Source of the DNA: an uncultured archaeon
GTDB taxonomy: Archaea; Iainarchaeota; Iainarchaeia; Iainarchaeales; CSSED10-239
Direction: 5' to 3'
Assembly (NCBI GenBank): GCA_964468895.1
Contig: CAYXWT010000004.1
Coordinates: 1 to 31,478, forward strand
Length of the DNA: 31,478 bases
Shown here: piece after piece, positions 1,602 to 29,562 of the stretch
How the letters are laid out: every line of letters begins with the position of its first letter
Numbering within the stretch: position 1 is the first letter of the stretch
Translations under genes and position numbers: made by a program
Notes under the pieces: generated by a model
Told to the model about the DNA's origin: nothing
The model's input: the letters and a program-made list of their open reading frames with translations, nothing else
Database searches by the model: none

Positions 1602-2405
1602 ATGAAATTTAAAAGGTCTTCAACAAGAAATAATTCTAAAGGTGAGGTTTCTAAAACCAATTATAAAATATCATCAAACCTTTTTACTACTAGAATAGGT
1701 TCTTTTTTTAAGAGTAGTAGAAGAGGGGTAGTTTATACAAAAAGAGCTAAAGAAATAATGCATTCTTTTAAAGATAAGCACTTATTTAAAGAAATTCTAG
1801 AACTTTCTAAAAAAATTGGTGAACATAAAGAATTTGATCCTATAATAACTATTAAAAATTCAAATTATATTTTAACTGCTAAAAGATTTGATGGAGTAAA
1901 TATTTTTAATTGTAGAAAAACATATACTATTGAATTTAGAAATGGTAATAAAGATAAACTTTTTATTAAAGATGGAAATATAGCTCATACTATTTTTGAA
2001 CATCTGGCTTTGAATTATATGAGTAAATTAGGATTTAATATTGTTGAACCAATTTTCAGTTACACTTCAAAGTCTCACAATTATATTGTTTATGATTATA
2101 GTCATCTATCTACACTTGACGCTTTAGAGAGAAAATTAAGTCCTAGTAAATTTAGGTCACTTTCTAAAGAAGTTTTAGAAATATCTAAAAGATTGTATAA
2201 TAATAGATATAGATTAAGAACAGAAATTATAAAAGAAATGCCTTTTATTAAAAGTTTTAAGATTGCAGAGATAAAGAATACAAATGTGTTTTATGATAAA
2301 ATAAATGATAAATTGTATTTTTTTGATCCAGTTTTAGATATAATAATTGATGAAAATAAATTGCCAGATAAAAAATATATTTCTAATTTACCAGATAAAA
2401 AATAA
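1602..2405 (+). CDS. family B paralog K1: atypical protein-kinase-like fold protein, function unknown
   Basis: Paralog of 2448-3251 and 14024-14746. Shared blocks are 'LFIKDG' (beta3 Lys-like), 'FEHLALNY..LG.NI..P' (alphaC-like), 'NYIVYDY..LSTL' (hinge-like), 'EIKNTNVFY' at the DxxxxN catalytic-loop position (here E for D) and 'LYFFDP' (DFG-like). Confidence 0.45.
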   Translation: MKFKRSSTRNNSKGEVSKTNYKISSNLFTTRIGSFFKSSRRGVVYTKRAKEIMHSFKDKHLFKEILELSKKIGEHKEFDPIITIKNSNYILTAKRFDGVNIFNCRKTYTIEFRNGNKDKLFIKDGNIAHTIFEHLALNYMSKLGFNIVEPIFSYTSKSHNYIVYDYSHLSTLDALERKLSPSKFRSLSKEVLEISKRLYNNRYRLRTEIIKEMPFIKSFKIAEIKNTNVFYDKINDKLYFFDPVLDIIIDENKLPDKKYISNLPDKK

Positions 2406-2447: not shown

Positions 2448-3251
2448 ATGAGTTTTTCAAAAATAAAAACAATTTCTAGAATAAAAAAAAAAGAACCAAA
2501 TAAAATTAAGTATAGTATTCATAGAGATATTCTTTGTCAAAAAGTATACAAGTTTTCTGGTTCTAAAGCAAGAGCTCTTATATATACAGAAAAAGCCAAA
2601 AAAATTTTATTTTCTTTAAGAAAAGAAAAGTTGTTTGAAAAAGTTTTAAGTTTATCTAAAAAGCTAGATGAAATATTAAAAAACACTGCTGAAATTAAGT
2701 TTAAAAATAATACTTATGTTCTAACTGCAAGATCACATTCTGCTAATAGTTATTTTTCTTGTAGAAAAACATTTATGATAGAGTTTTTAAAAGGACAAAA
2801 AGGAAAATCTTTTATAAAAGATGGAGATTTAAGAAGTTATGCTGTTTTTGAACATTTAGCATTAAATTATTTAGAAATGTTAGGACTTAATATAATTCAT
2901 CCTGTTTTGAGTTATACATCTGTATCTAAAAATTATATTGTTTATGATTTCACTAACTTATCAACTTTACTTTCTTTAATTGGAAAAATTTCACCAGAAA
3001 AATATAAATCTCTTATTAAAACTGTTAGTGAAATCAAAAATGCATTATATTTAGATGAAAATCAACTTAGAATAAAAAAAAAAGTTATCAAAAAATTTCC
3101 ATTTGTGGAGGATTTTATAATTAAAGATATAAATAGTAAAAATGTATTTTATGATCTAAAAAATGATAAATTATATTTTTTTGATCTTATTTTACGTGTA
3201 AAAATTGACGAAAGTAAGTTGCCAGATAAAAAATATATTTCTAATTCTTAA
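2448..3251 (+). CDS. family B paralog K2: atypical protein-kinase-like fold protein, function unknown
   Basis: Tandem with K1 after a 42-nt spacer. Same blocks as K1, with 'DINSKN' (DxxxxN) followed by 'LYFFD'. C-terminal 'KLPDKKYISN' is shared with K1. Confidence 0.45.
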   Translation: MSFSKIKTISRIKKKEPNKIKYSIHRDILCQKVYKFSGSKARALIYTEKAKKILFSLRKEKLFEKVLSLSKKLDEILKNTAEIKFKNNTYVLTARSHSANSYFSCRKTFMIEFLKGQKGKSFIKDGDLRSYAVFEHLALNYLEMLGLNIIHPVLSYTSVSKNYIVYDFTNLSTLLSLIGKISPEKYKSLIKTVSEIKNALYLDENQLRIKKKVIKKFPFVEDFIIKDINSKNVFYDLKNDKLYFFDLILRVKIDESKLPDKKYISNS

Positions 3252-3258
3252 AAAATAA

Positions 3259-10491: not shown

Positions 10492-11415
10492 TTATTCTAT
10501 AAATTCATTAGTTAAACAATGACAGGAACCACCTGCAAACCTAAAATAAGTTAATGGAACTACAAATCTGGAAATATTTAATTTCTTTAATTCTTCTTCA
10601 ACATCAGCAGTTATAAATTCATGAGAATTTATTAAATATCCAGGAGAAACTATTCCATTTACTGAATAATTTCCTAAATCATTAATATCTCCTGAAGAAT
10701 CTATATTGTCAACATCTATAATTCTAACACCTAATTTTTTAAGATCTTCATAAGATGTTTTATCAACCATATTTTTTGCAACTAATAAAGCACATAATTC
10801 GTTTTCTTTATTAATAACTGGACAAAAAACAGTATCTAAATGAAAACCACTTGATTTTATAATTAAATAATTATCAGGTTTTATAATACTTTTTACAAAT
10901 TCATGACCTAACCTATTTGCTCTAGAAATGCCACCAAAATAATAAGATCCATTTTTGGTTTCAATATAATGAACTTCTCCAAATTCAATATAAGCATTTT
11001 CTGGAGGAGTTATTATTTCCTTATTAAATTTGTTTTTAATAGCTTCAGCAACAATATTTACTTCTTTAATTCTATCTTTGACACTAAAGTTAGCTTTAAT
11101 CCAATAATTTTTAAACATCATACCTCTATCTCTGATAAAAATAGCATCATGGTTTAAGTTTTTAATAGTGTTAAGTTCTTTCGGAAAATCTATAGTTTCT
11201 ATATCATATTCTGCAAGTTTTAATTTTTTCTTAAGATTGTTATGATCTTTAATAATAACATCCTGTTCTGGTATAATATTGTTTTCTTTAGCAAAAACTG
11301 TAGCGTTATTTATACTATCGTTATTCTCTCCTTTATGAACAACATATCCATTACACCAACAACCTTTAATATCTTTATTAGTTTTTGGAAGATTCATAAG
11401 TAATATTTTTTTCAT
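10492..11415 (-). CDS. guanidino-group-modifying enzyme superfamily protein (arginine deiminase / amidinotransferase / DDAH-like)
   Basis: 'GFHLDTVFCPV' (HLDT motif) and C-terminal 'FAGGSCHCLTNE' (catalytic Cys motif GGxxHC.T). Confidence 0.6.
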   Translation of the reverse strand: MKKILLMNLPKTNKDIKGCWCNGYVVHKGENNDSINNATVFAKENNIIPEQDVIIKDHNNLKKKLKLAEYDIETIDFPKELNTIKNLNHDAIFIRDRGMMFKNYWIKANFSVKDRIKEVNIVAEAIKNKFNKEIITPPENAYIEFGEVHYIETKNGSYYFGGISRANRLGHEFVKSIIKPDNYLIIKSSGFHLDTVFCPVINKENELCALLVAKNMVDKTSYEDLKKLGVRIIDVDNIDSSGDINDLGNYSVNGIVSPGYLINSHEFITADVEEELKKLNISRFVVPLTYFRFAGGSCHCLTNEFIE

Positions 11416-11514
11416 ATGATTACCTCTATTTGTTTGTATACATAAAAATTACATTTTCAAAAATAGGCTTAATCTAATTAACAAGTAAATTTATTTTTAA
11501 AAATTGATAATGAC

Positions 11515-11585
11515 AATTAGTATTTAGATTGTTTTTAGTAAGAATTTTATTTTGAATATAATATTTAAGTAAGTATAATGTTTTA
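11515..11585. repeat. about 70-nt dispersed direct repeat, copy 1
   Basis: 'aattagtatttagattgtttttagtaagaattttattttgaatataatatttaagtaagtataatg' aligns by eye with 11824-11895, with a handful of substitutions. Confidence 0.7.
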
Positions 11586-11598
11586 TACCTAACTATAG

Positions 11599-11811
11599 TC
11601 TTTTTATAGAATCTTCAAATCAATAAAGTATTGGGAGCCATTAGGAAATACAATTTTAGAATATATTAATTATATAGAATATAAGTTTGATGGTAGACTA
11701 GGTATTTTAAAACGAAAACATATTGACTGTGAAACTATTAACTATATAGGAAAAGAAGCTAATAATGTTGAACAAGAAATTATAAAAGTAGTTACTATTC
11801 TAAGTTTTTAA
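11599..11811 (+). pseudogene. start-less ORF remnant between the two 70-nt repeats
   Basis: Open frame '..YWEPLGNTILEYINYIEYKFDGRLGILKRKHIDCETINYIGKEANNVEQEIIKVVTILSF*' with no ATG/GTG start. No family recognised. Confidence 0.2.
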
Positions 11812-11823
11812 AATAAAAATTAT

Positions 11824-11895
11824 AATTAGTATTAAGATTGTTTTTAGTATGTATTTTATTTTGAATGTAATATTTAGGTGTGTATGACTTTTTTG
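11824..11895. repeat. about 70-nt dispersed direct repeat, copy 2
   Basis: 'aattagtattaagattgtttttagtatgtattttattttgaatgtaatatttaggtgtgtatgac', see copy 1. Offset is about 309 nt. Confidence 0.7.
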
Positions 11896-11998: not shown

Positions 11999-12059
11999 GT
12001 CAATCTATTGACTGGTTTTATGGTCAAACCGGCTAACGGGTTGCCCGGTCCATATGTTT
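11999..12059 (+). promoter_or_regulatory. GC-enriched structured leader ending in the conserved 11-mer TCCATATGTTT, upstream of ATPase copy 1
   Basis: Palindrome gtcaat-ct-attgac (11999-12012), ggttt/aaacc stem (12014-12030), accgg/ccggt stem (12028-12049) and the 11-mer at 12049-12059. The same 11-mer sits at the same 38-nt distance from the ATG of ATPase copy 2. Confidence 0.4.
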
Positions 12060-13394
12060 AAATATATTTCTATTGCTATATTTCTTATGGATTATACTAA
12101 GATATTAAAAATTTGGAATCCCTGGTGGATTTCAAAGAAAGTAGATTTAAATAAATTTAAAATTGAACGAAATAAAACTAAAGAAATAATTAATTTTTTA
12201 AAAATTAGAGAAATTATAGTTTTAAAAGGTATAAGACGTTCAGGAAAATCAACTATTATTTATCAAATTATAAATTATCTTATAAATCAGAAAAAAATAA
12301 ATCCCAAAAACATCTTTTATTTTAATTTTGATCAACCTTTAAAAAGTAATGAATTAGAAGTTATGGATGATCTTTTAAATAATTATTTAGAAATTAATAA
12401 TCCAAAAGGAAAAATATATGTTTTTTTAGATGAAATTCAAAATGTAGAATTATGGGAAAGGTGGATTAAAAAAGAATATGATTTAAAAGAAAAAAGTATT
12501 AAATTTATTATAACTGGATCTAATAATTCTTTACTTTCAAATAAAATTTCTACTGCTTTAACTGGAAGAATTATTTCTATAAATATATATCCTTTATCTT
12601 TTTTAGAATATTTATTATTTAAGAATTATAAATATAAAGATCTTGATATAGATGAAAATAAAATAAAATTTCATTTTAATAAATTTTTGAAAAAAGGTGG
12701 ATTTCCAGAAGTAGTTTTAGAAAAAGATGATTATATTAATAAGAAAAGATTATTAGAATATTTTGAAAATATTATTTTAAGAGATATAATTACAATTAAA
12801 GATGTAAATGAAACTAAAAAATTAAAAGAACTTGCTCATTATCTAATTACAAATATTTCTTCACAAATAACTTATAGTAAATTAGGAAAAGTATTTGGTC
12901 TTAATAAAGCTACTGTAAAAGAATATGTTTCTTATATTGATCAATCTTTTTTAATTTTTGAGGTTAATTTTTATTCTTATTCTTTAAAAAAAAGTGTAAG
13001 TATACAAAAACCTAAAAAAATATATTGTATTGATAATGGTTTGAGAGAAGCTGTTTCTTTTAAATTTTGGGATGATAATTCAAAACTTATTGAAAATTTA
13101 GTTTTTGTAGATCTTTTAAGAAGAGGATTAGATGTTTATTATTGGTTTTCTAAAAATGAAATTGATTTTGTAGTTTCAAAAAATAATAGACTTATTTTGA
13201 TTAATGTATGTTATTCCAATGAAATTCCTGAAAGAGAAATTAAGGGTTTTAAAGAATTTGAAAAAGAATATAAGAACATAGATCAAAAAATAATAATTAC
13301 TAAAAATTTAGAAAAAGAAGAAGATGGTGTTTATTATATTCCTATATACAAATGGATTTTAAAAGATAATTTGTTATTTTATAAAGAGATTTAG
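12054..13394 (+). CDS. AAA+ ATPase, COG1373/DUF4143 family (AAA_14 plus DUF4143 plus C-terminal nuclease-like domain)
   Basis: Walker A 'GIRRSGKST' and Walker B 'VFLDEIQ'. 'GGFPE', 'RDI' and 'YCIDNG' blocks are shared with 26739-27998. The likely true start is the in-frame ATG at 12087 ('MDYTKILKIWNPWW'). Confidence 0.8.
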   Translation: MFKYISIAIFLMDYTKILKIWNPWWISKKVDLNKFKIERNKTKEIINFLKIREIIVLKGIRRSGKSTIIYQIINYLINQKKINPKNIFYFNFDQPLKSNELEVMDDLLNNYLEINNPKGKIYVFLDEIQNVELWERWIKKEYDLKEKSIKFIITGSNNSLLSNKISTALTGRIISINIYPLSFLEYLLFKNYKYKDLDIDENKIKFHFNKFLKKGGFPEVVLEKDDYINKKRLLEYFENIILRDIITIKDVNETKKLKELAHYLITNISSQITYSKLGKVFGLNKATVKEYVSYIDQSFLIFEVNFYSYSLKKSVSIQKPKKIYCIDNGLREAVSFKFWDDNSKLIENLVFVDLLRRGLDVYYWFSKNEIDFVVSKNNRLILINVCYSNEIPEREIKGFKEFEKEYKNIDQKIIITKNLEKEEDGVYYIPIYKWILKDNLLFYKEI

Positions 13395-13795
13395 CAACAA
13401 CAATAACTGCAGGAGCAAGACTATTTTTAACTATTGCTCAAACAATAGCCAAAAATGAAAAATGTCCTCATCATTATATGGATACAGATAGTATTTTTGT
13501 AGATACAAAAATATCTAGTAAAGTTATTGATTATTTTAAAAATCTAAGTCCTTATTCAAATAATATTCCTTTACTTAAAAAAGATAAAGAAAATGTTTAT
13601 TTTTATGTGATTTGTAGTAAAAGATATTGTCTTTATAGATTAGATAAAAATAAAAGAGATATTATTGATTATAAATTACATGGATTAGGTCATTTAATTA
13701 ATCCTTGGAAAAATAAAATAAAGAATTTGCAAATCCTTTCGTATATTAACAATAATATTATCGTCCATATTAATATTGTGGAGAGTAATTGTTAA
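13385..13795 (+). pseudogene. C-terminal remnant of a family-B DNA polymerase
   Basis: The frame opens at 13385, overlapping the ATPase stop. It reads 'ATTITAGARLFL..(18 aa)..HHYMDTDSIFV', i.e. the ITxxGR block followed by motif C YxDTDS. 'CSKRYCLY' sits at the KKRY/KxY motif position. The exonuclease domain and motifs A and B are missing. Confidence 0.6.
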
Positions 13796-13857: not shown

Positions 13858-13930
13858 AGCCTCTAGTGGGATTTGAACCCACGACCTACAGTTTACAAGA
13901 CTGTTGCTCTAGCCACTGAGCTATAGAGGC
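13858..13930 (-). tRNA. tRNA-Thr (anticodon UGU), 73 nt, no encoded CCA
   Basis: Reverse complement folds as a cloverleaf: acceptor GCCTCTA/TAGAGGC, D-arm GCTC-AGTGGCTA-GAGC, anticodon arm ACAGT-CTTGTAA-ACTGT, variable AGGTC, T-arm GTGGG-TTCAAAT-CCCAC, discriminator T. Confidence 0.92.
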
Positions 13931-13977: not shown

Positions 13978-14007
13978 TAGAGAAAACTTTAAAAATAAAT
14001 CTTTATT
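13978..14007. repeat. 30-nt perfect direct repeat, copy 1 (3' flank of K3)
   Basis: 'tagagaaaactttaaaaataaatctttatt' is identical to 14808-14837. Weaker similarity extends about 15 nt on each side. Confidence 0.85.
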
Positions 14008-14023
14008 TTTTATTTAATTTTAA

Positions 14024-14746
14024 TTAAGAAATATACCAAGGATCAATAATGTATATTTCTTTTGTTTTAGTATTATAAAGTAAGTTGTGAGGAAATAAAT
14101 CTTGTATATTTGTTGGACCAGTAACATTAGTATTTTTAGATTTTATATATTCTTGATTATTTAAACCTTTATCTATTATTGATTCTATTATTTCTCTTTT
14201 TCTTGAAATGCTAATACTTTCTTTTAGAGTTAGTTTGTTATTATCTGCTAATTCTTTAATTGTTTGAAGATTAGTAAAATCATATACTATATATGCTTTT
14301 TTTGATTTAATATTTAAATATGATAGATGAGCATCAATAATATTAATTCCTAAACTTTTTAGTATTTTTATGGCTTTCATTTCATAAAAACCATTTAAAT
14401 GAGCTTTAAGTTTGTTATCAAAAGTAGAACATTTACTATTAGGTGTTGGTTCTTCATTTATTTCTTTTACAAAATATTTTTTATTATTTTTATTAATTTT
14501 AATTATATACATTTCATTAGTGCTTGTTTTGATCTTATTACTTACTTTTTCTATTGTAAATCTACCTTTTGGGTCTTTATATTTGGGAAGTTTTTTTTTA
14601 TTCATTTCACGAAAAGCTTTAAGTAAACCTTTATTTTCTGAAAGTATTTTTCGTCCTTTTGGAGAGTAAGCTAGTTTATGATTTTCTGTTTCTAGGAACT
14701 TTGATTTTGTAATACTATATCTTTTCATATTTATATCTAAATACAA
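14024..14746 (-). CDS. family B paralog K3: atypical protein-kinase-like fold protein with the most canonical catalytic motifs
   Basis: 'KKYFVKEI' (VAIK-like Lys), 'YEMKAIKILKSLGINI' (alphaC-like), 'AYIVYDFTNLQTI' (hinge), 'DLFPHNLLY' (DxxxxN, about 14084-14101) and 'IYIIDPW' (metal-binding Asp, about 14042-14044). This arrangement resembles RIO/Bud32/APH/Kdo-kinase-type atypical kinases. Confidence 0.5.
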   Translation of the reverse strand: MYLDINMKRYSITKSKFLETENHKLAYSPKGRKILSENKGLLKAFREMNKKKLPKYKDPKGRFTIEKVSNKIKTSTNEMYIIKINKNNKKYFVKEINEEPTPNSKCSTFDNKLKAHLNGFYEMKAIKILKSLGINIIDAHLSYLNIKSKKAYIVYDFTNLQTIKELADNNKLTLKESISISRKREIIESIIDKGLNNQEYIKSKNTNVTGPTNIQDLFPHNLLYNTKTKEIYIIDPWYIS

Positions 14747-14807
14747 TCTTTTTTTAATTATTTGTGTGATTTTTGAGATTTTTATTTTAAAAATATTTTT
14801 AAGTTAT

Positions 14808-14837
14808 TAGAGAAAACTTTAAAAATAAATCTTTATT
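14808..14837. repeat. 30-nt perfect direct repeat, copy 2 (5' flank of K3)
   Basis: Identical to 13978-14007. Confidence 0.85.
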
Positions 14838-14967
14838 ATTTATTTTATTAATTGTGCCATAAAATTATAAATACTTAGAAAATCAAAATATTTAAAAAAG
14901 TAATTAGATATAATATACTTTGTTATATTTATGAATTAATAAAATAAATTTCTAATTTGTTTTTTAT

Positions 14968-15744
14968 ATGTTAATAAGAAAAAAAAATTTAAAAAAATTT
15001 GGGCAGAAAAGAGAAGTCAATGAATCTGTAAATTATATTTTAAGTAGTAAAAAAAAAGGATTTGAAAGTTGGGCTTATAAAGGAGATAGATATAGATATA
15101 AAGTTGTTTTTGAATTACAACTTAAAAAGAAGCCACTTAAATATTTGCTTGATAATAATATAAAAAACCCTGAAATTATGATGTTAGGGCCATCAACTGG
15201 AGAATATATTCTAGAATTTAAAAAAAGACTTTTAGAAAATAAAATTAAACCAATAATTGATTGCTTTTCTTTAAAAAATGAATTAAATAAAAATGTAGAA
15301 AAGGAAGTTAGATTAAATCTATTTGGTAAAGGAGCTTTTGAAAAATTAAATACAAAAGCAAATAATCTTGATTTAAAAGAAATTCAAAGAAATCTTATAG
15401 ATAAATATAATTTAATTATAGCACCAATGAGTATAGGTGTTCATACAAAGTATCCTATAAATGCTTTATTTACTTCTGCATTAATGCTTAGAAAAGGTGG
15501 TAAAGCATATGTTGAAATTCCTGCAATAGATAGAGATTATTTAGAGTATATGAAATCGCAAAAACAGTCACGAAGTAAATATGATAAACAGTTATTTTAT
15601 TCAAAATTACAAGCAACTAAAGTAGAAAAAATTTTTGATAGGTTTGTTAATTCTTATAACCCTAAATTAAAATTTAAATTAGAAGCTGTTGATACTTTTT
15701 ATCATGAAAAATATGTGTTTATAGAAATTACTAGAATACAATAA
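14968..15744 (+). CDS. family A paralog P1: Rossmann/SAM-methyltransferase-like protein
   Basis: 'LKKFGQKRE', 'FESWAYKGDRYRYK', 'IMMLGPSTGE', 'PIIDCFSL', 'YNLIIAPMSIGVHTKYPINALFTSALMLRKGGKAYVEI', 'NPKLKFKL' and terminal 'FIEITRIQ'. Confidence 0.55.
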   Translation: MLIRKKNLKKFGQKREVNESVNYILSSKKKGFESWAYKGDRYRYKVVFELQLKKKPLKYLLDNNIKNPEIMMLGPSTGEYILEFKKRLLENKIKPIIDCFSLKNELNKNVEKEVRLNLFGKGAFEKLNTKANNLDLKEIQRNLIDKYNLIIAPMSIGVHTKYPINALFTSALMLRKGGKAYVEIPAIDRDYLEYMKSQKQSRSKYDKQLFYSKLQATKVEKIFDRFVNSYNPKLKFKLEAVDTFYHEKYVFIEITRIQ

Positions 15745-16551: not shown

Positions 16552-17301
16552 TTGATTATTATGCCTATTTTAAGAAATAAAAAAGTTATAACTAAATCAA
16601 TTTTAAAAAAATTTGGTAAAAAAAGAGAACCTTTTGATTATGTGTCTAAACAAATTATTGATAAGAATGAGGTGTGGGGACATAATGGATCCAAAAATAG
16701 ATTTAAATCTATATTTCTTAAAAACTTAGAGAGAAAACCAATTTCTTTTTTACAAAAACTTGGAAAAGAAAAGCCAACAGTTATGTTTTTAGGACCTGGT
16801 AAAGGTGGTACAATAACTGAATTTCTAAAATATACTTCTAAATTAAAAATAAATCCTGTTGTAGATGTTTTTGCTTTAACTAAAAATTTGTCTTTAGAAG
16901 CAAGTTCTAAAATTAGAACAGATTATTCTTCAGATGTTCCTTTTGAACATTTAAATATTAAAAATAGTAAATATAAATTTTTGGAATAAAAATATGATCT
17001 TGTAATTAGTGCTATGGGTGTTGGGGCACACACAAAATATACCTCTAATGCTCTTTTTACTTCGGCTTTAATGTTACAAAAAGGTGGTAAGGCTTATATT
17101 CAAACAAATATGTGGAATTATCTAGTAAAAAATTCATATGATGCTAAAAAAACAAAATTACTTATTAAAAGTGTATTTAATAGATTGGTTGTTTCTTATA
17201 ATAAAATCTTAGAAAAATCTAATCTTAACAAAAGAAAATATTCTTTTAATTTTATTGAAAGTAATAATTTAGGATTTGTTGAAATAGAAAGAATTAAATA
17301 A
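16552..17301 (+). pseudogene. family A paralog P3, interrupted by an in-frame TAA (16987-16989)
   Basis: ORFs 16552-16989 and 17014-17301 share one frame. Read through, they give '..KYKFLE*KYDLVISAMGVGAHTKY..', where paralogs have 'FLENKYDL'. The C-terminal third is shorter and more divergent but still ends 'FVEIERIK'. Confidence 0.7.
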
Positions 17302-18936: not shown

Positions 18937-20004
18937 TTATTTCTTTAATTCTATGGTTTGAGTAGGGAAAGCAAATTCAATTTTTTCTTTTTCAAAACGA
19001 GTTTTTATTTCTGTGTTTATTTTGTCTTTTATTTGTATGTATTTTCCCCAATTTAATTCGTTTATATAATATGTGACTTTTACATCTAATGAATAACTAT
19101 TAAATTCATCAAATCTTATATAAAAATCAGGAAGTATGTTTTTATTGTTTTTAAGTATTTCTTTAACTATTGCTTTTGCTTTGTTTAATTTAGCTGTACT
19201 TGTGCTATATGTTAAACCAAGAGTTGTATCTATTCTTTTTGAAGATCTATACGATATGTTCGAAATAGTACTACCTGCAATTTTACTATTTGGCATAATC
19301 ATTAAAGTACCATTTGTTTTTTGTATTTGGGCAGATCTTAATCCTACTGCTTTAACAGTTCCTACTTCTCCATTAATTTCTACAAAATCTCCTATATTAA
19401 AGTTTTTTTCTCCAAATAATACTACACCGCTTATTAAATTTTCTAGTGCATCTTTAGCTGCAAGAGCTACTGCAATACCACCTATTCCAAGTCCTGCTAG
19501 TAATGCTCCTACATCATAACCAAAATTAGATAATACTAATACACCTGCAAAAGCTACAATTACTATGTTTGTTAAAGTTTTTAATAATGGAACTAATTGA
19601 TCATCATATTTTGTTTTTGTTTTCTTTGCTATTTTTGTAATATATTCATCTATTATTCCTAATATGAATTTTGCTAAAAACCAAGCTATACAAAATACAT
19701 ATAATAAAAATACAATTTTGGTAATTATGTTTTGAAAACTTGATGATACTGTTAAATATCTAAAACCAATTTCAAAAAATATTATTGTTATTATTAACAT
19801 AAATGGAAGTGGTTTTTCCATAATACTAACTAATATATCATCAAACTTTGTTTTTGTTTTTTCTGCAATTTTTTTAAATACGTTTTTACTAAAATAGGAT
19901 GCTATTTTGCTAACTATTATTCCTATAAATATAAATAATATAAACATTAAAATTTGTTTTAAAGTATTTCCGAAAATCATAATTTCTAACATAATTAATC
20001 TCAC
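18937..20004 (-). CDS. MscS-family small-conductance mechanosensitive channel
   Basis: N-terminal TM helices, pore-helix region 'LAGLGIGGIAVALAAKDALENLISG', and the beta-domain 'GDFVEINGEVGTVKAVGLRSAQIQKTNGTLMIMPNSKI'. Confidence 0.85.
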   Translation of the reverse strand: MRLIMLEIMIFGNTLKQILMFILFIFIGIIVSKIASYFSKNVFKKIAEKTKTKFDDILVSIMEKPLPFMLIITIIFFEIGFRYLTVSSSFQNIITKIVFLLYVFCIAWFLAKFILGIIDEYITKIAKKTKTKYDDQLVPLLKTLTNIVIVAFAGVLVLSNFGYDVGALLAGLGIGGIAVALAAKDALENLISGVVLFGEKNFNIGDFVEINGEVGTVKAVGLRSAQIQKTNGTLMIMPNSKIAGSTISNISYRSSKRIDTTLGLTYSTSTAKLNKAKAIVKEILKNNKNILPDFYIRFDEFNSYSLDVKVTYYINELNWGKYIQIKDKINTEIKTRFEKEKIEFAFPTQTIELKK

Positions 20005-20217
20005 TTTATTAATTTTTTAAAATGTAGTTATAGATATGTTTTATATCTATAGATTATTTATAATAAACTATTTATAAATGTTTTTGTAACTATATAAATA
20101 ACTAGTATATAATATTTGTAATAATATCTTATTTTGTAGTCTACTTTCAAAGATATATTCTTCTATTTAAAATAAAATTGATTCTATAAATATAAATATT
20201 TTTTAATTTGATAAATT

Positions 20218-20937
20218 ATGATTAAAAAAAAATTAAAAGTCAAATCTAAAGTTACAAAATCTACTGTTGTAGAATTGAAAGATGTTACTAAGACTTATCT
20301 TATGGGTGAAGTTGCAGTTCATGCTTTAAATGGTGTTAATTTAAAGATAAAACAAGGTGATTTTGTATCTATTATGGGTCCAAGTGGATCTGGAAAATCT
20401 ACTATGATGCATATTGTTGGTGCTTTAGATTTACCAAGTACTGGTCAAACTTTTATTAAAGGAATAGATTTGAGTACTTTAAGTGAAAATGAACTTTCTC
20501 AAATAAGAGGAAAAACAATTGGTTTTGTTTTTCAAGAATTTAATTTAATTCCTACTCTTACTGCTCTAGAAAATGTAAGATTACCTATTTTGTTTCAAGA
20601 TATAGAAGAAGATAGAACTGATTGTTGTATTGATTTATTAAAATTAGTAGGTCTAGGTGATAGAGTTGATCATAAACCTAGTGAACTTAGTGGTGGGCAA
20701 CAACAAAGGGTTGCTATTGCAAGAGCTTTGGCTAATGATCCTGAAATAATTCTTGCTGATGAACCTACTGGTGCACTTGATTCTAAATCTGGTATTGAAA
20801 TACTTGATTTACTTGAAGATTTAAATAGAAAAGGTAAAACTGTTATTATTATTACTCATGATAAATCTTTAACTAAATATACTAAAAGAAATATTTCTTT
20901 AAAAGATGGTAAAGTTATTAAAGATATTTCAAAATAA
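20218..20937 (+). CDS. ABC transporter ATP-binding protein (MacB/LolD-type)
   Basis: Walker A 'GPSGSGKST', Q-loop 'FVFQEFNL', signature 'LSGGQQQRVAIARAL', Walker B 'IILADEPTGALD' and H-loop 'ITHD'. Confidence 0.92.
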   Translation: MIKKKLKVKSKVTKSTVVELKDVTKTYLMGEVAVHALNGVNLKIKQGDFVSIMGPSGSGKSTMMHIVGALDLPSTGQTFIKGIDLSTLSENELSQIRGKTIGFVFQEFNLIPTLTALENVRLPILFQDIEEDRTDCCIDLLKLVGLGDRVDHKPSELSGGQQQRVAIARALANDPEIILADEPTGALDSKSGIEILDLLEDLNRKGKTVIIITHDKSLTKYTKRNISLKDGKVIKDISK

Positions 20938-20955
20938 AAAGTTTGTAAGATATTT

Positions 20956-22149
20956 ATGAAAGGAATGTTATCTTTTATTTTTAAAAATATAAAACGAAGA
21001 AAACTTCGAAGCTGGCTTACAATTATTGGTATAATTGTAGGTGTTTTTGCAATAGTTTCGCTAATGTCTTTATCTCAAAGTTTAGAAAATAAAATAAGTT
21101 CTAAATTTGATCAATTAGGTGCAAGAAAAATAGAAATTGTTTCTAAATATAGTTCTTATGGAACTAGTTCTTCAAGCCAAGCACTTAGTGAAGATGATAT
21201 TGCTGTTCTTGAAAAAATTCCAGATCTTGAAAAAGTAATTGGTTCTATTAAAAGTAGTGTTTCTATTGAATATAATAGAATAAATAAACATCTTACTTTA
21301 ACTGGTTATGATTGTGATAATATTGAAGATATGTTTTATCAAGAAAATTTAGAAATATTAAAAGGAAAACAAATAGTTTCTGAAAAATCTAAAGAAATTG
21401 TTATAGGTTATGGTTTTTATGGTGATTATGATAATGTTTTTGGTAAAAAACTAGATGTTGGAGATTCTTTAGAAATTAATAGTCATTCTTATAAAATTGT
21501 TGGTATTTTAGAAGATACTGGTGGACAAGGTAATTTTAATATTTATATTTCTATGACTAATATTAGAGATATAACTGGTGCAGAAGATAAAGTTGTTGAT
21601 AAAATATATGCAATTGTTAAAGAAAATAAAGTTCTTGAAGAAGTTTCTGAAAGAATACAAAATAAACTAGAAAGTTTTAGAGATTCTGATGATTTTAGTA
21701 TTACAACTCCTCAAAAGACTGCAGAAAAAAGAAAAGAAACTTTAAAAGTAGTTTCAATAGTAGTAATTGGAATTGCTGCAATTTCTTTATTAGTTGGTGG
21801 TATTGGAATTCTTAATTCTATGTATACTTCAGTAGTTGAAAGAAAAAAAGAAATTGGAGTTATGAAAGCAATTGGTGCTAAAAGAAGTGATATTTTAAAA
21901 CTTTTTTTATTAGAATCTGGTATTATTGGTTTTGTAGGTGGTCTAATAGGCTCTATTGTTGGTTTTGTAGTTGCATTTTTAGTTAGTTTTGTTGCAACAT
22001 TATTACAATTTGAAATTGTTTTTTCTTTAAGTTTTGATATTTTGTTAATAGCACTTGGTTTTTCATTTGTTGTTGGAATTATATCTGGCTTTTGGCCAGC
22101 TTATAAAGCTTCAAAACAAGAACCAGTTGAATGTTTAAGAGAAGAATAA
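20956..22149 (+). CDS. ABC transporter permease, FtsX/MacB-type (MacB_PCD plus FtsX domains)
   Basis: N-terminal TM 'LRSWLTIIGIIVGVFAIVSL', a large extracytoplasmic domain, and a C-terminal FtsX block 'GGIGILNSMYTSVVERKKEIGVMKAIGAKRSDI'. Confidence 0.85.
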   Translation: MKGMLSFIFKNIKRRKLRSWLTIIGIIVGVFAIVSLMSLSQSLENKISSKFDQLGARKIEIVSKYSSYGTSSSSQALSEDDIAVLEKIPDLEKVIGSIKSSVSIEYNRINKHLTLTGYDCDNIEDMFYQENLEILKGKQIVSEKSKEIVIGYGFYGDYDNVFGKKLDVGDSLEINSHSYKIVGILEDTGGQGNFNIYISMTNIRDITGAEDKVVDKIYAIVKENKVLEEVSERIQNKLESFRDSDDFSITTPQKTAEKRKETLKVVSIVVIGIAAISLLVGGIGILNSMYTSVVERKKEIGVMKAIGAKRSDILKLFLLESGIIGFVGGLIGSIVGFVVAFLVSFVATLLQFEIVFSLSFDILLIALGFSFVVGIISGFWPAYKASKQEPVECLREE

Positions 22150-22253
22150 AGTTACATTTTATAAATAAAATGTTCTTTATATTTGTTGTATAATATATTT
22201 AAAATAAATTATAAAAATTAAAATAAAATTTAGTATTTAGAGGTGGAATTAAA

Positions 22254-23525
22254 ATGAATATAAAAAATTTAAAAACAATATTTAGTATAGTACTAATATT
22301 AGGATTATTTGCATTTTCTGGTCTTGTTAATGCTCAACAAGATTATGATGTGATAAATTTAGATGCTAGTAATTATAATTATGATCCAGCGCCAATTACT
22401 CCTGGTGATGAGTTTGAATTGTGGATACAATTAACAAATAATAGTAATAATGCTGCTGAAAATATAGATTTTCTTTTAGAATTAGAATATCCTTTTAGTT
22501 TAGCAGATTATGATGAATTAAATGGAAATATAAGTTATATTGCACCATATCAAACTAAAATTTTAAAATATAATTTAAAATCTGATTTTTTAGTAAATTC
22601 AGATACTTACACTATTAAATTTAAATATAAAAGAAGTGGAGTAGATGTATATAATGTTGAAGAATATAATATAGATATTACTTCTCAAAATGCAATTATA
22701 GATATTATATCTTCAGATATAGAAAAAGTAGATATTGGAAAGTCTTCTAATATAAATTTAAATTTAAAAAATTTAAGTTTACAAAATGCAAAAGATGTTT
22801 TTGTAACTTTAAATAACTCTAGTGATGATAAAATAAAAGTTTTAAATTTAACTACTAAATACATTGCAAAACTAAATGCTGGACAAGAAATTAATTTGCA
22901 ATATAGTGTTTTAGCAGATAGAACTATTGAAAATAAATCTTACTCTCTTCCTATTACTATTTCATATTCAGATAGCCAAGGAGATTATAATATTTCTAGA
23001 ACAGTAGGTTTAGAGATTATTGGAAATCCAGAAGTTTTACTTAATATTATAAGTATAGGAGAGAATTATAAATTATATACTAATGATGTTCAAGAAATTG
23101 AATTTGAAATCTATAATGTTGGAAATATTGATGCTGAATCTGTTTATGTTGAAGCAAATGGTGATTTTTTAGTAGCTTCAAGTAAATATTTTGTAGGTTC
23201 TATTGAAAAAGATAATTATGATAGTGTAGATTTAGAATTAAATATAAAAGATATGCCCTCTGGAACTTATAATTTAGAAGTTATAATAAATTATAAGGAC
23301 GGAGATTTAATTGAACAAAAAATAACTCAAAATATACCAATAGAAGTTGTTAATAAATCTAAAGGTGGAAATACCTTAGTAAGTGTTGTAAGTACTATTG
23401 GATATATTATTGCAGTAATATTTGGTTTGTCTTTGATAATTATTATTATAAGATGGTTACTAAAAATACTTGTATTTCCAGCTTTTGGAATATCTAGTAT
23501 TTCAAAAAACAAAAAAAAGAAATAA
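22254..23525 (+). CDS. secreted, C-terminally anchored surface protein with repeated beta-sandwich-like (CARDB/COG1361-like) modules
   Basis: Strong GAGGTGG RBS. Signal-like N-terminus 'IFSIVLILGLFAFSGLVNAQ', repeated '..N.GN..A..V.V..' style segments, a C-terminal hydrophobic helix and a poly-Lys tail. The domain call is tentative. Confidence 0.4.
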   Translation: MNIKNLKTIFSIVLILGLFAFSGLVNAQQDYDVINLDASNYNYDPAPITPGDEFELWIQLTNNSNNAAENIDFLLELEYPFSLADYDELNGNISYIAPYQTKILKYNLKSDFLVNSDTYTIKFKYKRSGVDVYNVEEYNIDITSQNAIIDIISSDIEKVDIGKSSNINLNLKNLSLQNAKDVFVTLNNSSDDKIKVLNLTTKYIAKLNAGQEINLQYSVLADRTIENKSYSLPITISYSDSQGDYNISRTVGLEIIGNPEVLLNIISIGENYKLYTNDVQEIEFEIYNVGNIDAESVYVEANGDFLVASSKYFVGSIEKDNYDSVDLELNIKDMPSGTYNLEVIINYKDGDLIEQKITQNIPIEVVNKSKGGNTLVSVVSTIGYIIAVIFGLSLIIIIIRWLLKILVFPAFGISSISKNKKKK

Positions 23526-23591
23526 ATTATTTATTTTTCTTTTTTTTAAAAACATAATTTTTTTAGTTAGAACTTTTAAAAAGATATTTTT

Positions 23592-24818
23592 ATGCATAAA
23601 TTAAAATTTACTAATTTGGTAAATCTTACTATAAAAAATATATTTAGAAGAAAAGTAAGATCTACTCTTACTATTCTTTCTGTAATTATAGGTATTGCAG
23701 CAGTAATTTCTTTGATATTATTAAGTGATGGTTTATTTAATGCTATTGAAGGGCAGTTTGATGTTTTAGGTTCAAATACTATATTTGTATTTCCTGTACA
23801 TTTTCAACAAGGTAATCCTGTAGAAATAGTTTCAAGATTATCTGTTGAAGATAAATTAACTTTAAAAGATGTTGAAGCTCTTAGAAAAATAAAAAATGTA
23901 AAAGAGGTATATTCTTTTACATATAAAACTAGTGAGTTTGAATATAAATATGAAACACAATATGCTTTAACTGTTGTTGCTCCTGCTGATGAATGTGATG
24001 GTTTATTTGAAATTATGCAATTAGATTTTTCTTCTGGAGAAGGATTTAATGGAAAAACTGGTAAGAAAGTTATAATTGGATCATATTTTGCAAATGATCT
24101 TTTTGATCATAAAATTAGTGTTGGTAATAATGTAAAATTAAATAATATTGATTTTAAAGTAATTGGAATACTTGAACCTGTTGGTAATGTAGATGATGAT
24201 AGTACTGTTTATATTACAAAAGAAACTGCAGATAAAGTACTTGTTTTGGACTCAGAAGTTACTCAAATAATTGCCAAATCTGCTGGTGATGCTGATGTTA
24301 GTGATGTTAAAGATGATATAGTTGATAGACTTGAAAAAACACATAGTGAAGATGCATTTATGGTATATACTTCTCTTCAAATGTTAGAAATGATTCAACA
24401 GATTTTAATGGTTCTTAAAATTATTTTGATATCTATTGCTTTAATTTCTCTAGTAGTTGGTTCTATTGGAGTTATGAATTCTATATTTACTTCAGTTTTA
24501 GAAAGAATTGGAGAGATTGGTATTTTAAAATCCATTGGTGCTAAGATATATGATATTGTATTTTTATTTGTTTTAGAGTCTGTAATTTTATCTATTATTG
24601 GAGGATTAATTGGTTTGGTTTTAGGTATTGGTATAGCTAAATTAGTTGAACTTTATATTATTAGTTTGAATTTTGATATGTTACATATTATAGTTAATGC
24701 TAATATTATTATTCTGGCAATTTTTATATCTATATTGGTTGGTTTTATAGCTGGTATATTACCTGCAATTAGCGCTGCAAGATTAAAACCTGTAGATGCA
24801 CTTAGAAAAAATATTTAA
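23592..24818 (+). CDS. second FtsX/MacB-type ABC permease
   Basis: Same architecture as 20956-22149: 'VRSTLTILSVIIGIAAVISL', then 'GSIGVMNSIFTSVLERIGEIGILKSIGAKIYDI', ending '..RLKPVDALR'. Confidence 0.85.
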   Translation: MHKLKFTNLVNLTIKNIFRRKVRSTLTILSVIIGIAAVISLILLSDGLFNAIEGQFDVLGSNTIFVFPVHFQQGNPVEIVSRLSVEDKLTLKDVEALRKIKNVKEVYSFTYKTSEFEYKYETQYALTVVAPADECDGLFEIMQLDFSSGEGFNGKTGKKVIIGSYFANDLFDHKISVGNNVKLNNIDFKVIGILEPVGNVDDDSTVYITKETADKVLVLDSEVTQIIAKSAGDADVSDVKDDIVDRLEKTHSEDAFMVYTSLQMLEMIQQILMVLKIILISIALISLVVGSIGVMNSIFTSVLERIGEIGILKSIGAKIYDIVFLFVLESVILSIIGGLIGLVLGIGIAKLVELYIISLNFDMLHIIVNANIIILAIFISILVGFIAGILPAISAARLKPVDALRKNI

Positions 24819-26738: not shown

Positions 26739-27998
26739 ATGAATAAAGAAGTTTTAAGAAAAACAATACTTAATCATTATGAGATGTTTACAAATAAGGA
26801 TATAGGTGTAGTAAGAGATTATCTTACTGAATTTAAAAAAGAAATAGATAATCCTTTAACAATTGTTATTACAGGTCATCGAAGAGTTGGAAAATCTACG
26901 CTTTTATTACAAATTGCAAAGAAATATTATAAAAATAATTTTTATTATTTAGATTTTTCTGATCCTTCTCTTAAAAATCTAGATGTGTCTGATTATGAAC
27001 CATTATATGAATTATTTTTAAAAGAATTTGGTTTAAAAAAAGCTTTTTTCTTTGATGAGATACAAGGTAAACCTGAGTGGAATTCTTTTGTTAATATTCT
27101 TAGAGAAAGAAAACATAAATGTTTTGTAACAGGATCTAATTCTGAAATGTTATCTTCAGAAATATCTACTTACTTAACAGGAAGGCATAAAGATAAAATT
27201 ATATTTCCTTTTTCTTTTAAAGAGTTTTTAAATTATAAAACAATAGATACTAATTTATTAACTACAACTAATACCTCAAAAATTCTTAAATATTTTGATA
27301 TTTATTTAGAAGAAGGTGGCTTTCCTGAAAATATAATATTTAATCAACCTGAAATATTAAAAGATATTTATAAAGATATTATAACTAGGGATATTATAAG
27401 TAGGTGGAATATTCAAAATATTTCAGATATAGAGGATTTAGCATATTATTTATTATCAAATACTACTAATGAGTTTACTTATAGTTCTCTTAATAAATAT
27501 CTTAAAATAAAAGATCCTAAAACTATTCAAAAATATGTTAAATATATTTGTAAAACTTATTTTTTGTTTGAATTATCTCAATTTGATTATTCACTTAAAA
27601 AACAAAGAAAAAAGAAAAAGAAAATTTATTGTATTGATAATGGTTTTTTAACTAATGTTGGATATGCTTTTTCTATTGGTAAGAGCAGATACTTAGAAAA
27701 TTTAATATTTATTGAATTAAAAAGAAGAAATAAAGAAGTATATTTCTTTAGAAATGCAAAAAATCAAGAATGTGACTTTTTGGTTGTAGATAAAAAGAAA
27801 GTAATGTCTGCAATTCAAGTTTGTTATGATTTAAAAAATATAGACACTGAAGAAAGAGAAATAAATGGGTTGATTTTTGCACTAAAAGAATATAGACTTA
27901 ATACAGGAATAATAATAACTTATAATACTTCTAAAACAATTAAAAAAGATAAATTTAATATTAAATTTATACCTGCATATAAGTGGTTATTAGAATAA
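26739..27998 (+). CDS. AAA+ ATPase, COG1373/DUF4143 family (second full copy)
   Basis: Walker A 'GHRRVGKST' and Walker B 'FFFDEIQ'. 'GGFPE', 'TRDI', 'IYCIDNG' and C-terminal 'ECDFLV...IQVCYDL..EREINGL' are present. Confidence 0.8.
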   Translation: MNKEVLRKTILNHYEMFTNKDIGVVRDYLTEFKKEIDNPLTIVITGHRRVGKSTLLLQIAKKYYKNNFYYLDFSDPSLKNLDVSDYEPLYELFLKEFGLKKAFFFDEIQGKPEWNSFVNILRERKHKCFVTGSNSEMLSSEISTYLTGRHKDKIIFPFSFKEFLNYKTIDTNLLTTTNTSKILKYFDIYLEEGGFPENIIFNQPEILKDIYKDIITRDIISRWNIQNISDIEDLAYYLLSNTTNEFTYSSLNKYLKIKDPKTIQKYVKYICKTYFLFELSQFDYSLKKQRKKKKKIYCIDNGFLTNVGYAFSIGKSRYLENLIFIELKRRNKEVYFFRNAKNQECDFLVVDKKKVMSAIQVCYDLKNIDTEEREINGLIFALKEYRLNTGIIITYNTSKTIKKDKFNIKFIPAYKWLLE

Positions 27999-28043: not shown

Positions 28044-28080
28044 TGCACAAATTTTGTTTATTTGTGCACTTGAAGTGCAC
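28044..28080. repeat. two overlapping perfect palindromes at the truncation point of ATPase copy 3
   Basis: tgcacaaat (28044-28052) pairs with atttgtgca (28060-28068). gtgcactt (28064-28071) pairs with aagtgcac (28073-28080). Confidence 0.7.
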
Positions 28081-28399
28081 AATTGGTAGGTTATATGAAA
28101 ACGTAGTTTTTATACAACTTTTAAGAAGAGGTAAAAAAGTTTATTTTTTTAAGGATAAACTTAATTATGAAATAGATTTTATAACTTTAGAGAAAAATAA
28201 AGTTTCTTCTTTAATACAAGTATGTTATGATTTAGATATTGTAAAGACTAAAGAAAGGGAAATAAGGGGTTTATTATCAGGATTAAATGAATTTAAACTA
28301 AAAGAAGGAGTAATGATAACTCGAGATTTAGAAAAAGAAGAAAAAATAGATAATAAATTAATTAGATTTATTCCTTTATGGAAATGGTTGTTGGAATAA
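28064..28399 (+). pseudogene. 5'-truncated DUF4143 ATPase (C-terminal nuclease-like domain only)
   Basis: 'YENVVFIQLLRRGKKVYFF..EIDFI...IQVCYDL..KEREIRGL...IPLWKWLLE' aligns with the last ~105 aa of 26739-27998 and 12054-13394. No Walker motifs are present, and the GTG start lies inside a palindrome. Confidence 0.65.
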
Positions 28400-28605: not shown

Positions 28606-29562
28606 GTGTTTTTGGTATTAATTATTAGAAAATTAGGTTCTAAAAATTATTATTATTTAGAAGAATCTTTTAGGTTGTTAAATAAATCTAAAAGATTTAG
28701 AAAATATGTTGGTGTGAAGAAACCAAATAATAAAAAGCTTATATCTATAGAAGAAGAATTTTTAGATAGTATTATTGAGAAATTAACTAATTTTAAATAT
28801 GATACCAAATATATTTCTAAAAAGCAATTAATTCGAATTATTTTATTTAATGAACTATATTTTAAAAAATATAACTTGTTATCTCCAACAAAAAGAAATA
28901 AATTTGATATAAATAAAAATATTTTATTTACATTAGCTACTTTAAATACAGAAGATGTTGATATAGATATAAAAGATATTCTTGGAGCAATAAATAAAAA
29001 AGAAAAAGATTTAAATTTAAGGGAACAGATTTGTAAAAATATGTTGTTTGCTTTAAAATTTATAAAATCTGAAAATAAATTGAACTTAGATTTTATTAGA
29101 AAAGTTCATGGTATTGCAATGGCTGATTTTGAAACAAAAACACCTGGACTTTTTAGAGATAAGCAAGTATATATTTATTTAAAACATACAAAAGATATTT
29201 TAAATTCAGAAATAAAATTTAGACCACCTGGATATGGTTTGATTGTAAACAAACTAAAAGTATTTATAGAATGGTATATTACTGTAGATATTAATCCTTT
29301 AGAAAAAGCAGTATTAACTCATTTTGAAATATATGAAATTCATCCTTTTTTAGATGGAAATAAAAGAGTGTGTAGATTATTATTTAACAAAGTGTTATTA
29401 GATTATAATTTTCCATTGATTAATGTATCATACAAAAAAGATCAATCTTTTGATACATTAATTAGTTCTGTAGAAAATAATGATCCTAAATACCTAATAG
29501 AGTTTGTTTATAAACAATATTTTAAAGAAATTCAGGATTTTTTAAAATCTGTAGATAAATAG
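28606..29562 (+). CDS. Fic/DOC-family protein (AMPylase-type fold)
   Basis: Fic motif 'HPFLDGNKRVCRLL' (HxFx[D/E]GN[G/K]RxxR). The start codon is uncertain; the ORF track uses GTG. Confidence 0.8.
   Translation: MFLVLIIRKLGSKNYYYLEESFRLLNKSKRFRKYVGVKKPNNKKLISIEEEFLDSIIEKLTNFKYDTKYISKKQLIRIILFNELYFKKYNLLSPTKRNKFDINKNILFTLATLNTEDVDIDIKDILGAINKKEKDLNLREQICKNMLFALKFIKSENKLNLDFIRKVHGIAMADFETKTPGLFRDKQVYIYLKHTKDILNSEIKFRPPGYGLIVNKLKVFIEWYITVDINPLEKAVLTHFEIYEIHPFLDGNKRVCRLLFNKVLLDYNFPLINVSYKKDQSFDTLISSVENNDPKYLIEFVYKQYFKEIQDFLKSVDK

Follow-up and report, generated by a model that had tools for sequence, protein, structure and literature searches.

Adjacency of kinase-like and methyltransferase-like genes in an uncultured Iainarchaeota archaeon probably reflects turnover at a repeat-bounded locus

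Three genes of a kinase-like family (K1 to K3) and six of a methyltransferase-like family (P0 to P5, P3 with an in-frame stop) were found in a 31,478-nt stretch of DNA from an uncultured archaeon of the Iainarchaeota (GenBank assembly GCA_964468895.1, contig CAYXWT010000004.1, positions 1 to 31,478; hereafter the window), which has a G+C content of ~21%. The two families meet where K3 on the minus strand and P1 on the plus strand stand as divergent neighbours, and the initial annotation had proposed from this adjacency and the co-amplification that they form a functional pair, modifying a common target. Comparison with related genomes led us to a different reading, namely that K and P are best regarded as two separate enzyme families restricted to DPANN-type, Iainarchaeum-like archaea, and that the K3–P1 adjacency probably results mainly from recombination of a variable locus and not from a dedicated kinase–methyltransferase module. 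Family membership was assigned by alignment and with hidden Markov models (HMMs) built in this analysis, which bore out that both families are expanded and co-located in the window; further K or P open reading frames (ORFs) were sought in the window with the same HMMs, and none was found beyond K1 to K3 and P0 to P5.

The junction lies beside a tRNA-Thr(TGT) gene (13858..13930, minus strand; identified by ARAGORN and by Rfam with 77.5 bits), which is the left landmark of the variable locus. In the ORF list K3 begins at the TTG at 14746, which leaves the 221-nt divergent intergenic region (14747-14967) that had been described; all K3 homologues begin with MK(K/R/I)YSI, so the start of K3 is probably the ATG at 14728 and the divergent spacer (14729..14967) then measures 239 nt. 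Within it, AT-rich TATA-like stretches were noticed by eye ~25-30 nt upstream of both start codons. On either side of K3 stands a copy of a perfect 30-bp direct repeat, TAGAGAAAACTTTAAAAATAAATCTTTATT, found twice in the window against none expected from 100 shuffles. Copy A (13978..14007) separates the tRNA-Thr gene, whose 5′ end is 48 nt away, from the 3′ end of K3, and copy B (14808..14837) is located inside the K3–P1 spacer.

The 30-bp repeat is conserved in the related contigs L001, L002, L012 and L016, and its placement there reveals the K genes as a unit that can be present, enlarged or missing. In L001 the same repeat flanks an entire four-gene K array, and the contig end runs into tRNA-Thr as in the window. 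The more diverged relative L012, whose MscS is 77% identical to that of the window, has an empty site, with the tRNA-side flank, one repeat, orthologues of P1 and P2 and then MscS in a row, and it contains no K gene and two P genes only. Before its second P gene, L012 has the motif again in slightly altered form (L012:1084-1113, 18-47 nt upstream), and the P-side copy in L001 (L001:501-530) lies 9-18 nt from the start of the P2-like gene. These positions suggest that the repeat is a promoter module reused before P genes, and its motif GAAAAC-TTTAAAAATA resembles what we take to be an archaeal B recognition element (BRE)/TATA element.

Three related lineages, L001/L002, L013/L014 and L016, also have a divergent K|P junction. 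L016 has the same arrangement as the window; L001/L002 carry a four-gene K array facing a P2-like gene, and in L013/L014 a P4-like gene, followed by a P2-like gene, stands opposite at least two K genes. At the K array, the window thus has P1, L001 a P2-like gene and L013 a P4-like gene, and because each junction has a different P gene, the junction seems to have been rebuilt and not inherited as a fixed pair. Copy numbers vary independently as well, with K present in 0, 1, at least 2 or 4 copies and P in 2, or in 5 and more. In the genus of the window, both families would have grown by tandem duplication with birth-and-death turnover, since copy number differs among strains and pseudogenes occur in both families (P3, and the first K copy of L001, which is broken).

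Outside this genus, K and P were found in separate and conserved contexts. Five K orthologues (P0024, P0047, P0050, P0108 and P0109, on L021, L024, L026, L028 and L029) lie 11-40 nt downstream of a replication-protein-A (RPA) gene of the Rep_fac-A_C type, four of them upstream of CorA, and no P ORF was detected within 10 kb of any of the five. These RPA–K loci are L021:8661-11875, L024:8635-10804, L026:8644-11848, L028:8644-11845 and L029:4716-7915, to which L006:1-1530 can be added, and their recurrence hints at an ancestral K with an RPA-linked or housekeeping role. Single P genes occur in L003, in L017 (a Ca. Iainarchaeum metagenome-assembled genome, MAG) and in L018 (a complete Ca. Forterrea genome), with no K gene within 4.7-10 kb. 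The single P gene of L017 adjoins FtsX-CARDB-FtsX-ABC, MscS and methyltransferase genes, the same set as after the P array of the window, where the right-hand neighbourhood (18937..24818) comprises MscS (minus strand), an ABC ATPase, an FtsX/MacB permease, a CARDB protein and a second FtsX/MacB permease according to Pfam. This shared neighbourhood indicates that the P locus is ancestral and that the array grew in place. L006 is the only further contig that holds both families, with a partial K gene by RPA 3.7 kb from a P gene and four unrelated genes between them.

The neighbourhood comparison by which the proposed pairing could be checked went largely against it: adjacency was seen among close relatives, no conserved adjacency was seen in the divergent genomes, and across genomes the two families occur largely independently. 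With the families apart in five K genomes and three P genomes, and with L012 devoid of K, the claim that K and P work as a pair on one shared target is not supported. Two apparent links between the K and P neighbourhoods were also discarded on inspection. The HAD hydrolase gene by K2 and the HAD gene by the P gene of L003 are not orthologous, and the 376-aa gene by the P gene of L006 shows no relationship to the nucleotidyltransferase, also of 376 aa, that is encoded close to the K orthologues. As for the wider surroundings of the RPA–K loci, a T2SSE ATPase gene and a nucleotidyltransferase gene usually lie upstream and glycan-synthesis genes lie downstream. Contigs with K or P relatives carry genes for EF-1alpha, ribosomal protein S10, RtcB, RPA and MCM; together with the relatives in the Ca. 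Iainarchaeum and Ca. Forterrea genomes, they make a DPANN archaeon of the Iainarchaeota/Diapherotrites type the most likely origin of the window. Several metagenomes hold contigs near-identical to the window, and a metagenome scan with K patterns returned contigs of the same population only.

K1 (1602..2405, plus strand, 267 aa, 245 bits with the K HMM) and its tandem paralogue K2 (2448..3251, plus strand, 267 aa) share 48% identity, and K3 (14024..14728, minus strand, 234 aa from the ATG, 348 bits) is 25-32% identical to them; K1 and the protein P0013 group together in a separate clade of the family. The AlphaFold2 model of K3 is of moderate quality (predicted local distance difference test score, pLDDT, 67; predicted template modelling score, pTM, 0.62; one of five models above pLDDT 60), and nearly all of its top Foldseek matches are protein kinases (PDB, E 3e-4, TM-score 0.38-0.43; BFVD, a set of viral structures, E 1.6e-5). 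The residues expected of such a fold are in place. Across 33 diverse K members the β3 lysine K88 is invariant, and the αC glutamate E116, the catalytic aspartate D210 and the DFG-type aspartate D229 are each at least 90% conserved, whereas no Gly-rich loop (GxGxxG) is conserved in the alignment; N215 is invariant among seven close members. The spacings are canonical, five residues from D210 to N215 (D-x4-N) and 14 from N215 to D229 (N-x13-D). K chains stop 3-30 residues past D229, so that nearly the whole C-lobe (αF–αI and the activation segment) is absent, and they carry a conserved N-terminal helical region with an LAYS..GK.I...NPGL motif and a variable basic tail.

An exhaustive profile search assembled 98 K clusters at 50% identity, 38 of them at E <= 1e-10 and all of 200-310 aa. 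Not one member exceeded a Pfam or NCBIfam threshold; at E <= 0.01 only isolated sub-threshold matches appeared in single members, with one K member each weakly matching the Kdo, Fructosamin_kin, HipA_C and Kinase-PolyVal models, and the K profile found no kinase at E <= 1 among PDB sequences. In size (~230-290 aa), β3 Lys, αC Glu, D-x4-N loop, metal-binding Asp and lack of an activation segment, K is similar to the RIO, Bud32 and Kdo/WaaP kinases, but it differs from them in falling below the Pfam and NCBIfam thresholds, in having no Gly-rich loop and little of the C-lobe, and in possessing N-terminal helices and a tail of its own. On the evidence of the model and the conserved residues, K is predicted to be an unannotated minimal or truncated protein-kinase-like family with a bilobal kinase fold. 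As a separate observation, antisense ORFs of 75-85 codons lie within K3 (14412-14669, plus strand) and within every K copy of L001 (minus strand, 1437-1664, 2212-2439 and 3008-3256 of that contig; rich in Phe, Ile and Leu), and Lys/Asn/Glu-rich coding in AT-rich DNA is their most likely cause.

The P array runs on the plus strand from P1 (14968..15744, 258 aa, 350 bits with the P HMM), its first gene, through P2 (15768..16532, 254 aa), P3 (16552..17301), P4 (17318..18103, 261 aa) and P5 (18127..18915, 262 aa), P2, P4 and P5 being assigned by the family alignment and the P HMM. P0 (8124..8867, minus strand, 247 aa, 308 bits) is solitary and belongs to a ‘singleton’ subfamily, with the lone P genes of L003 (51% identity) and L006 (41%) as its closest relatives. 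P1 to P5 are mutually 36-52% identical, and P0 is 30-37% identical to them; the paralogues of K and P alike are old. P3 is interrupted by a single in-frame TAA (16987-16989) where its paralogues have Asn, and its two halves match positions 3-137 and 140-253 of the P HMM in the same frame, which makes P3 a probable pseudogene of recent origin or else a split gene. The AlphaFold model of P1 (pLDDT 79, pTM 0.80) yielded 276 Foldseek matches in PDB at E <= 1e-3, and the best 50 are almost all S-adenosylmethionine (SAM) methyltransferases; CouO, NovO, UbiG and ArsM are among the top structures (E down to 7e-8, TM-score about 0.5).

Motif I of the P family (V-M-x-L-G-x-G-x-G) is intact, and its G74 and G78 as well as the acidic D98 at the end of β2 are invariant in nine sequences. 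The best Pfam match was that of P2 to Methyltransf_23 (E 1.3e-4, 22.2 bits, under a cut-off of 27 bits), the NCBIfam search gave no matches with P, and a profile search of PDB with P gave nothing significant. P has the Rossmann-type fold, the LGxGxG motif I and the acidic β2 end in common with CouO/NovO, UbiG and the Methyltransf_23 type, but its identity to CouO, NovO and UbiG is only 9-17%, and it is set apart by a K/R-rich tail followed by E-x-W..G...R-Y/F-K and by a variable helical insert after β5. P is thus predicted to be a class I SAM-dependent methyltransferase with a Rossmann-like fold and a basic N-terminal extension, and the labels ‘kinase-like’ and ‘methyltransferase-like’ given in the initial annotation agree with our models and conserved residues at the level of fold and motif. 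Literature searches returned no description of either family. The basic N-terminal tails and the lack of signal peptides that the initial annotation reported were likewise recovered in the eight intact K and P proteins: their isoelectric points are 9.6-9.9, the first 35 residues carry a net charge of +5 to +9, and hydrophobic stretches resembling signal peptides or transmembrane helices are lacking. Such tails are weak evidence, because in a genome of ~21% GC the proteins are rich in Lys throughout.

Selection on the retained copies was estimated from ratios of nonsynonymous to synonymous substitution rates (dN/dS). Between orthologues the ratio is 0.17 for K3 and its L001 counterpart, 0.38 for P1 and 0.26 for P2, compared with 0.25 for the neighbouring MscS, and the L012 orthologues of P1 and P2 are 71% and 78% identical to the window genes. 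Paralogue pairs have higher ratios of about 0.6, as K1 and K2 do (~0.6). The retained K and P copies hence appear to be functional genes under purifying selection at ordinary rates, with no decay and no obvious diversifying selection.

Taken together, the comparison of strains suggests a simple course of events for the variable locus. K, at home downstream of RPA and upstream of CorA, and P, at home by the cluster of MacB-type ABC, CARDB and MscS genes, would have come together when K genes formed a cassette bounded by the 30-bp promoter-like repeat that is likewise found in front of P genes. At this repeat, recombination by Campbell-type integration, excision or deletion could then insert, expand or remove K genes in the interval from tRNA-Thr to the P array, and the same process could allow P genes to be lost, as P1 may have been in L001. 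The locus is similar to Campbell-type or integron-like cassettes in that identical short repeats enclose promoter-proximal genes in varying number and that a relative has an empty site with a single repeat, but differs from integron-like cassettes in that no integrase or attC-like structure was detected for the K cassette and in that its repeat is promoter-like. A rough estimate puts the chance that one K gene adjoins the end of the P array by random gene placement on the order of 1%, and the repeat-bounded cassette structure is the better explanation of this adjacency than function.

Several points weigh against this explanation. The contexts come from only ~10 independent loci, mostly on short contigs. 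The K|P junction is kept in three of four related lineages despite the turnover of the arrays, which selection for linkage could also explain; the proximity of K and P in L006 exceeds what random placement predicts, and K1/K2 and P0 are 4.9 kb apart in the window. The Pfam scan of the window found no integrase, transposase or recombinase that would drive the exchange. Finally, the comparison fits both insertion and deletion as the direction of change.

Some of these points would be expected if a K3-type kinase and a P1-type methyltransferase made up a genus-specific functional pair under a shared divergent control region, acting sequentially or antagonistically on one target. The window, L016, L001/L002 and L013/L014 all have the junction although the paralogues that meet there differ, both families are expanded in the same genus and have basic N-terminal tails, and the modest distances between K and P in L006 and between K1/K2 and P0 in the window point the same way. 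However, the empty site of L012 keeps intact P genes under purifying selection without a K cassette, the contexts of K and P are separate and conserved outside the genus, and the copy numbers of the two families vary independently; moreover, the junction-bearing contigs all belong to close relatives, for which shared ancestry is sufficient. We therefore regard a functional pair as possible but unlikely. A combined version, in which K cassettes were recruited to the P promoter motif and the divergent arrays became a fast-evolving two-enzyme module that phosphorylates and methylates one target in the host or virus interactions of a DPANN symbiont, is improbable; if true, a truncated kinase fold and a dedicated methyltransferase would here make up a new kind of system for conflict or modification.

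The tRNA-Thr adjacency and the direct repeats flanking the cassette, together with the copy-number variation, the pseudogenes, the nearby DUF4143/AAA_14 ATPases and Fic protein, and a weak match of K3 to the PD-T4-6 defence kinase (E 1e-3, 16 bits), could also mark the K cassette and the P array as cargo of a mobile element or of a defence or conflict island at tRNA-Thr that diversifies in an arms race. We consider this quite improbable. By Pfam the window has no mobility gene, and the repeat lies upstream of the tRNA 5′ end with no overlap with the 3′ end. No PADLOC system was matched, P giving nothing in that search, and the P locus is syntenic with that of a distant MAG and hence chromosomal and ancestral, while the dN/dS of orthologues is ordinary. 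A viral origin was rejected too, since neither K or P relatives nor the 22-nt core of the repeat occur in 2.9 million viral contigs.

The closest documented precedent for the logic proposed in the initial annotation is WbdD of E. coli O9a, whose kinase-fold and SAM methyltransferase domains act sequentially on one target, a glycan terminus in an ABC-transporter pathway (PMC3482155), and by analogy with it, or with an ethanolamine-kinase/phosphoethanolamine-methyltransferase route, K might make a phosphate ester that P would modify in remodelling a surface glycan or the head group of a scavenged lipid. The glycosyltransferase and polysaccharide-synthesis genes that follow the K orthologue loci, the PEMT/ICMT-like, Zn-phospholipase-C-like and HAD genes between K1/K2 and P0, and the lack of a protein-substrate-binding C-lobe in K would suit such a route, which is nonetheless highly improbable given that neither K nor P matches WbdD or PDB kinases or methyltransferases in sequence, that the fold matches are generic to each superfamily, that the adjacent ABC transporter is of the MacB/FtsX type and not Wzm/Wzt, that K and P are not found together in glycan clusters, and that WbdD is one fused polypeptide of glycan export whereas K and P are separate, divergent genes that are unlinked outside one genus.

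The remainder of the window, as read by Pfam, encodes CARDB surface proteins, DUF4143/AAA_14 ATPases, MscS, a MacB-type ABC transporter and a SpoU methylase, with the one tRNA-Thr. The DUF4143/AAA_14 and Fic genes (12054-13394, 26739-27998, 28064-28399 and 28606-29562) comprise two complete ATPase genes, a piece of a third that covers its C-terminus, and one gene with a Fic domain; members of these families were also seen on L021, L024, L026 and L028, which carry K orthologues, and they are typical of the variable regions of these genomes. Upstream of the first DUF4143 ATPase gene, a 640-nt gene-free stretch contains an 89-nt direct repeat of 81% identity (11496-11584 and 11805-11893). Between that ATPase gene and tRNA-Thr, an ORF at 13400-13795 reads ‘...ITAGARLF...YMDTDS...SKRY...’; by eye it was considered as a remnant of a family-B polymerase, for which Pfam and PDB sequences gave no support, and it was not used as evidence. 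From K1/K2 to P0 (1602-8867), the window holds genes for a HAD hydrolase, a PEMT/ICMT-type membrane methyltransferase and a SpoU methylase and a Zn-phospholipase-C-like gene, and it is pure speculation that they form a lipid head-group theme of a lipid-scavenging symbiont. A 307-aa protein encoded at 10492-11415 on the minus strand has no Pfam match, and its C-terminus, ‘...AGGSCHCLTNE’, resembles what we take to be the catalytic Cys motif of guanidino-group-modifying enzymes of the amidinotransferase or arginine deiminase type.

For a DPANN archaeon, with its tiny genome, ~6 kb of divergent paralogues from two uncharacterised enzyme families is a non-trivial outlay. The reading of K and P as a new kinase–methyltransferase system can no longer be ranked as supported. 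In its place, this work defines an unannotated methyltransferase family and an unannotated minimal kinase-like family of about 100 clusters at 50% identity with a conserved position after the RPA gene, and it points to a simple repeat-mediated route by which genes of the arrays may be gained and lost. The most useful outcomes are the RPA-linked minimal kinase family and the repeat-bounded cassette with its empty site.

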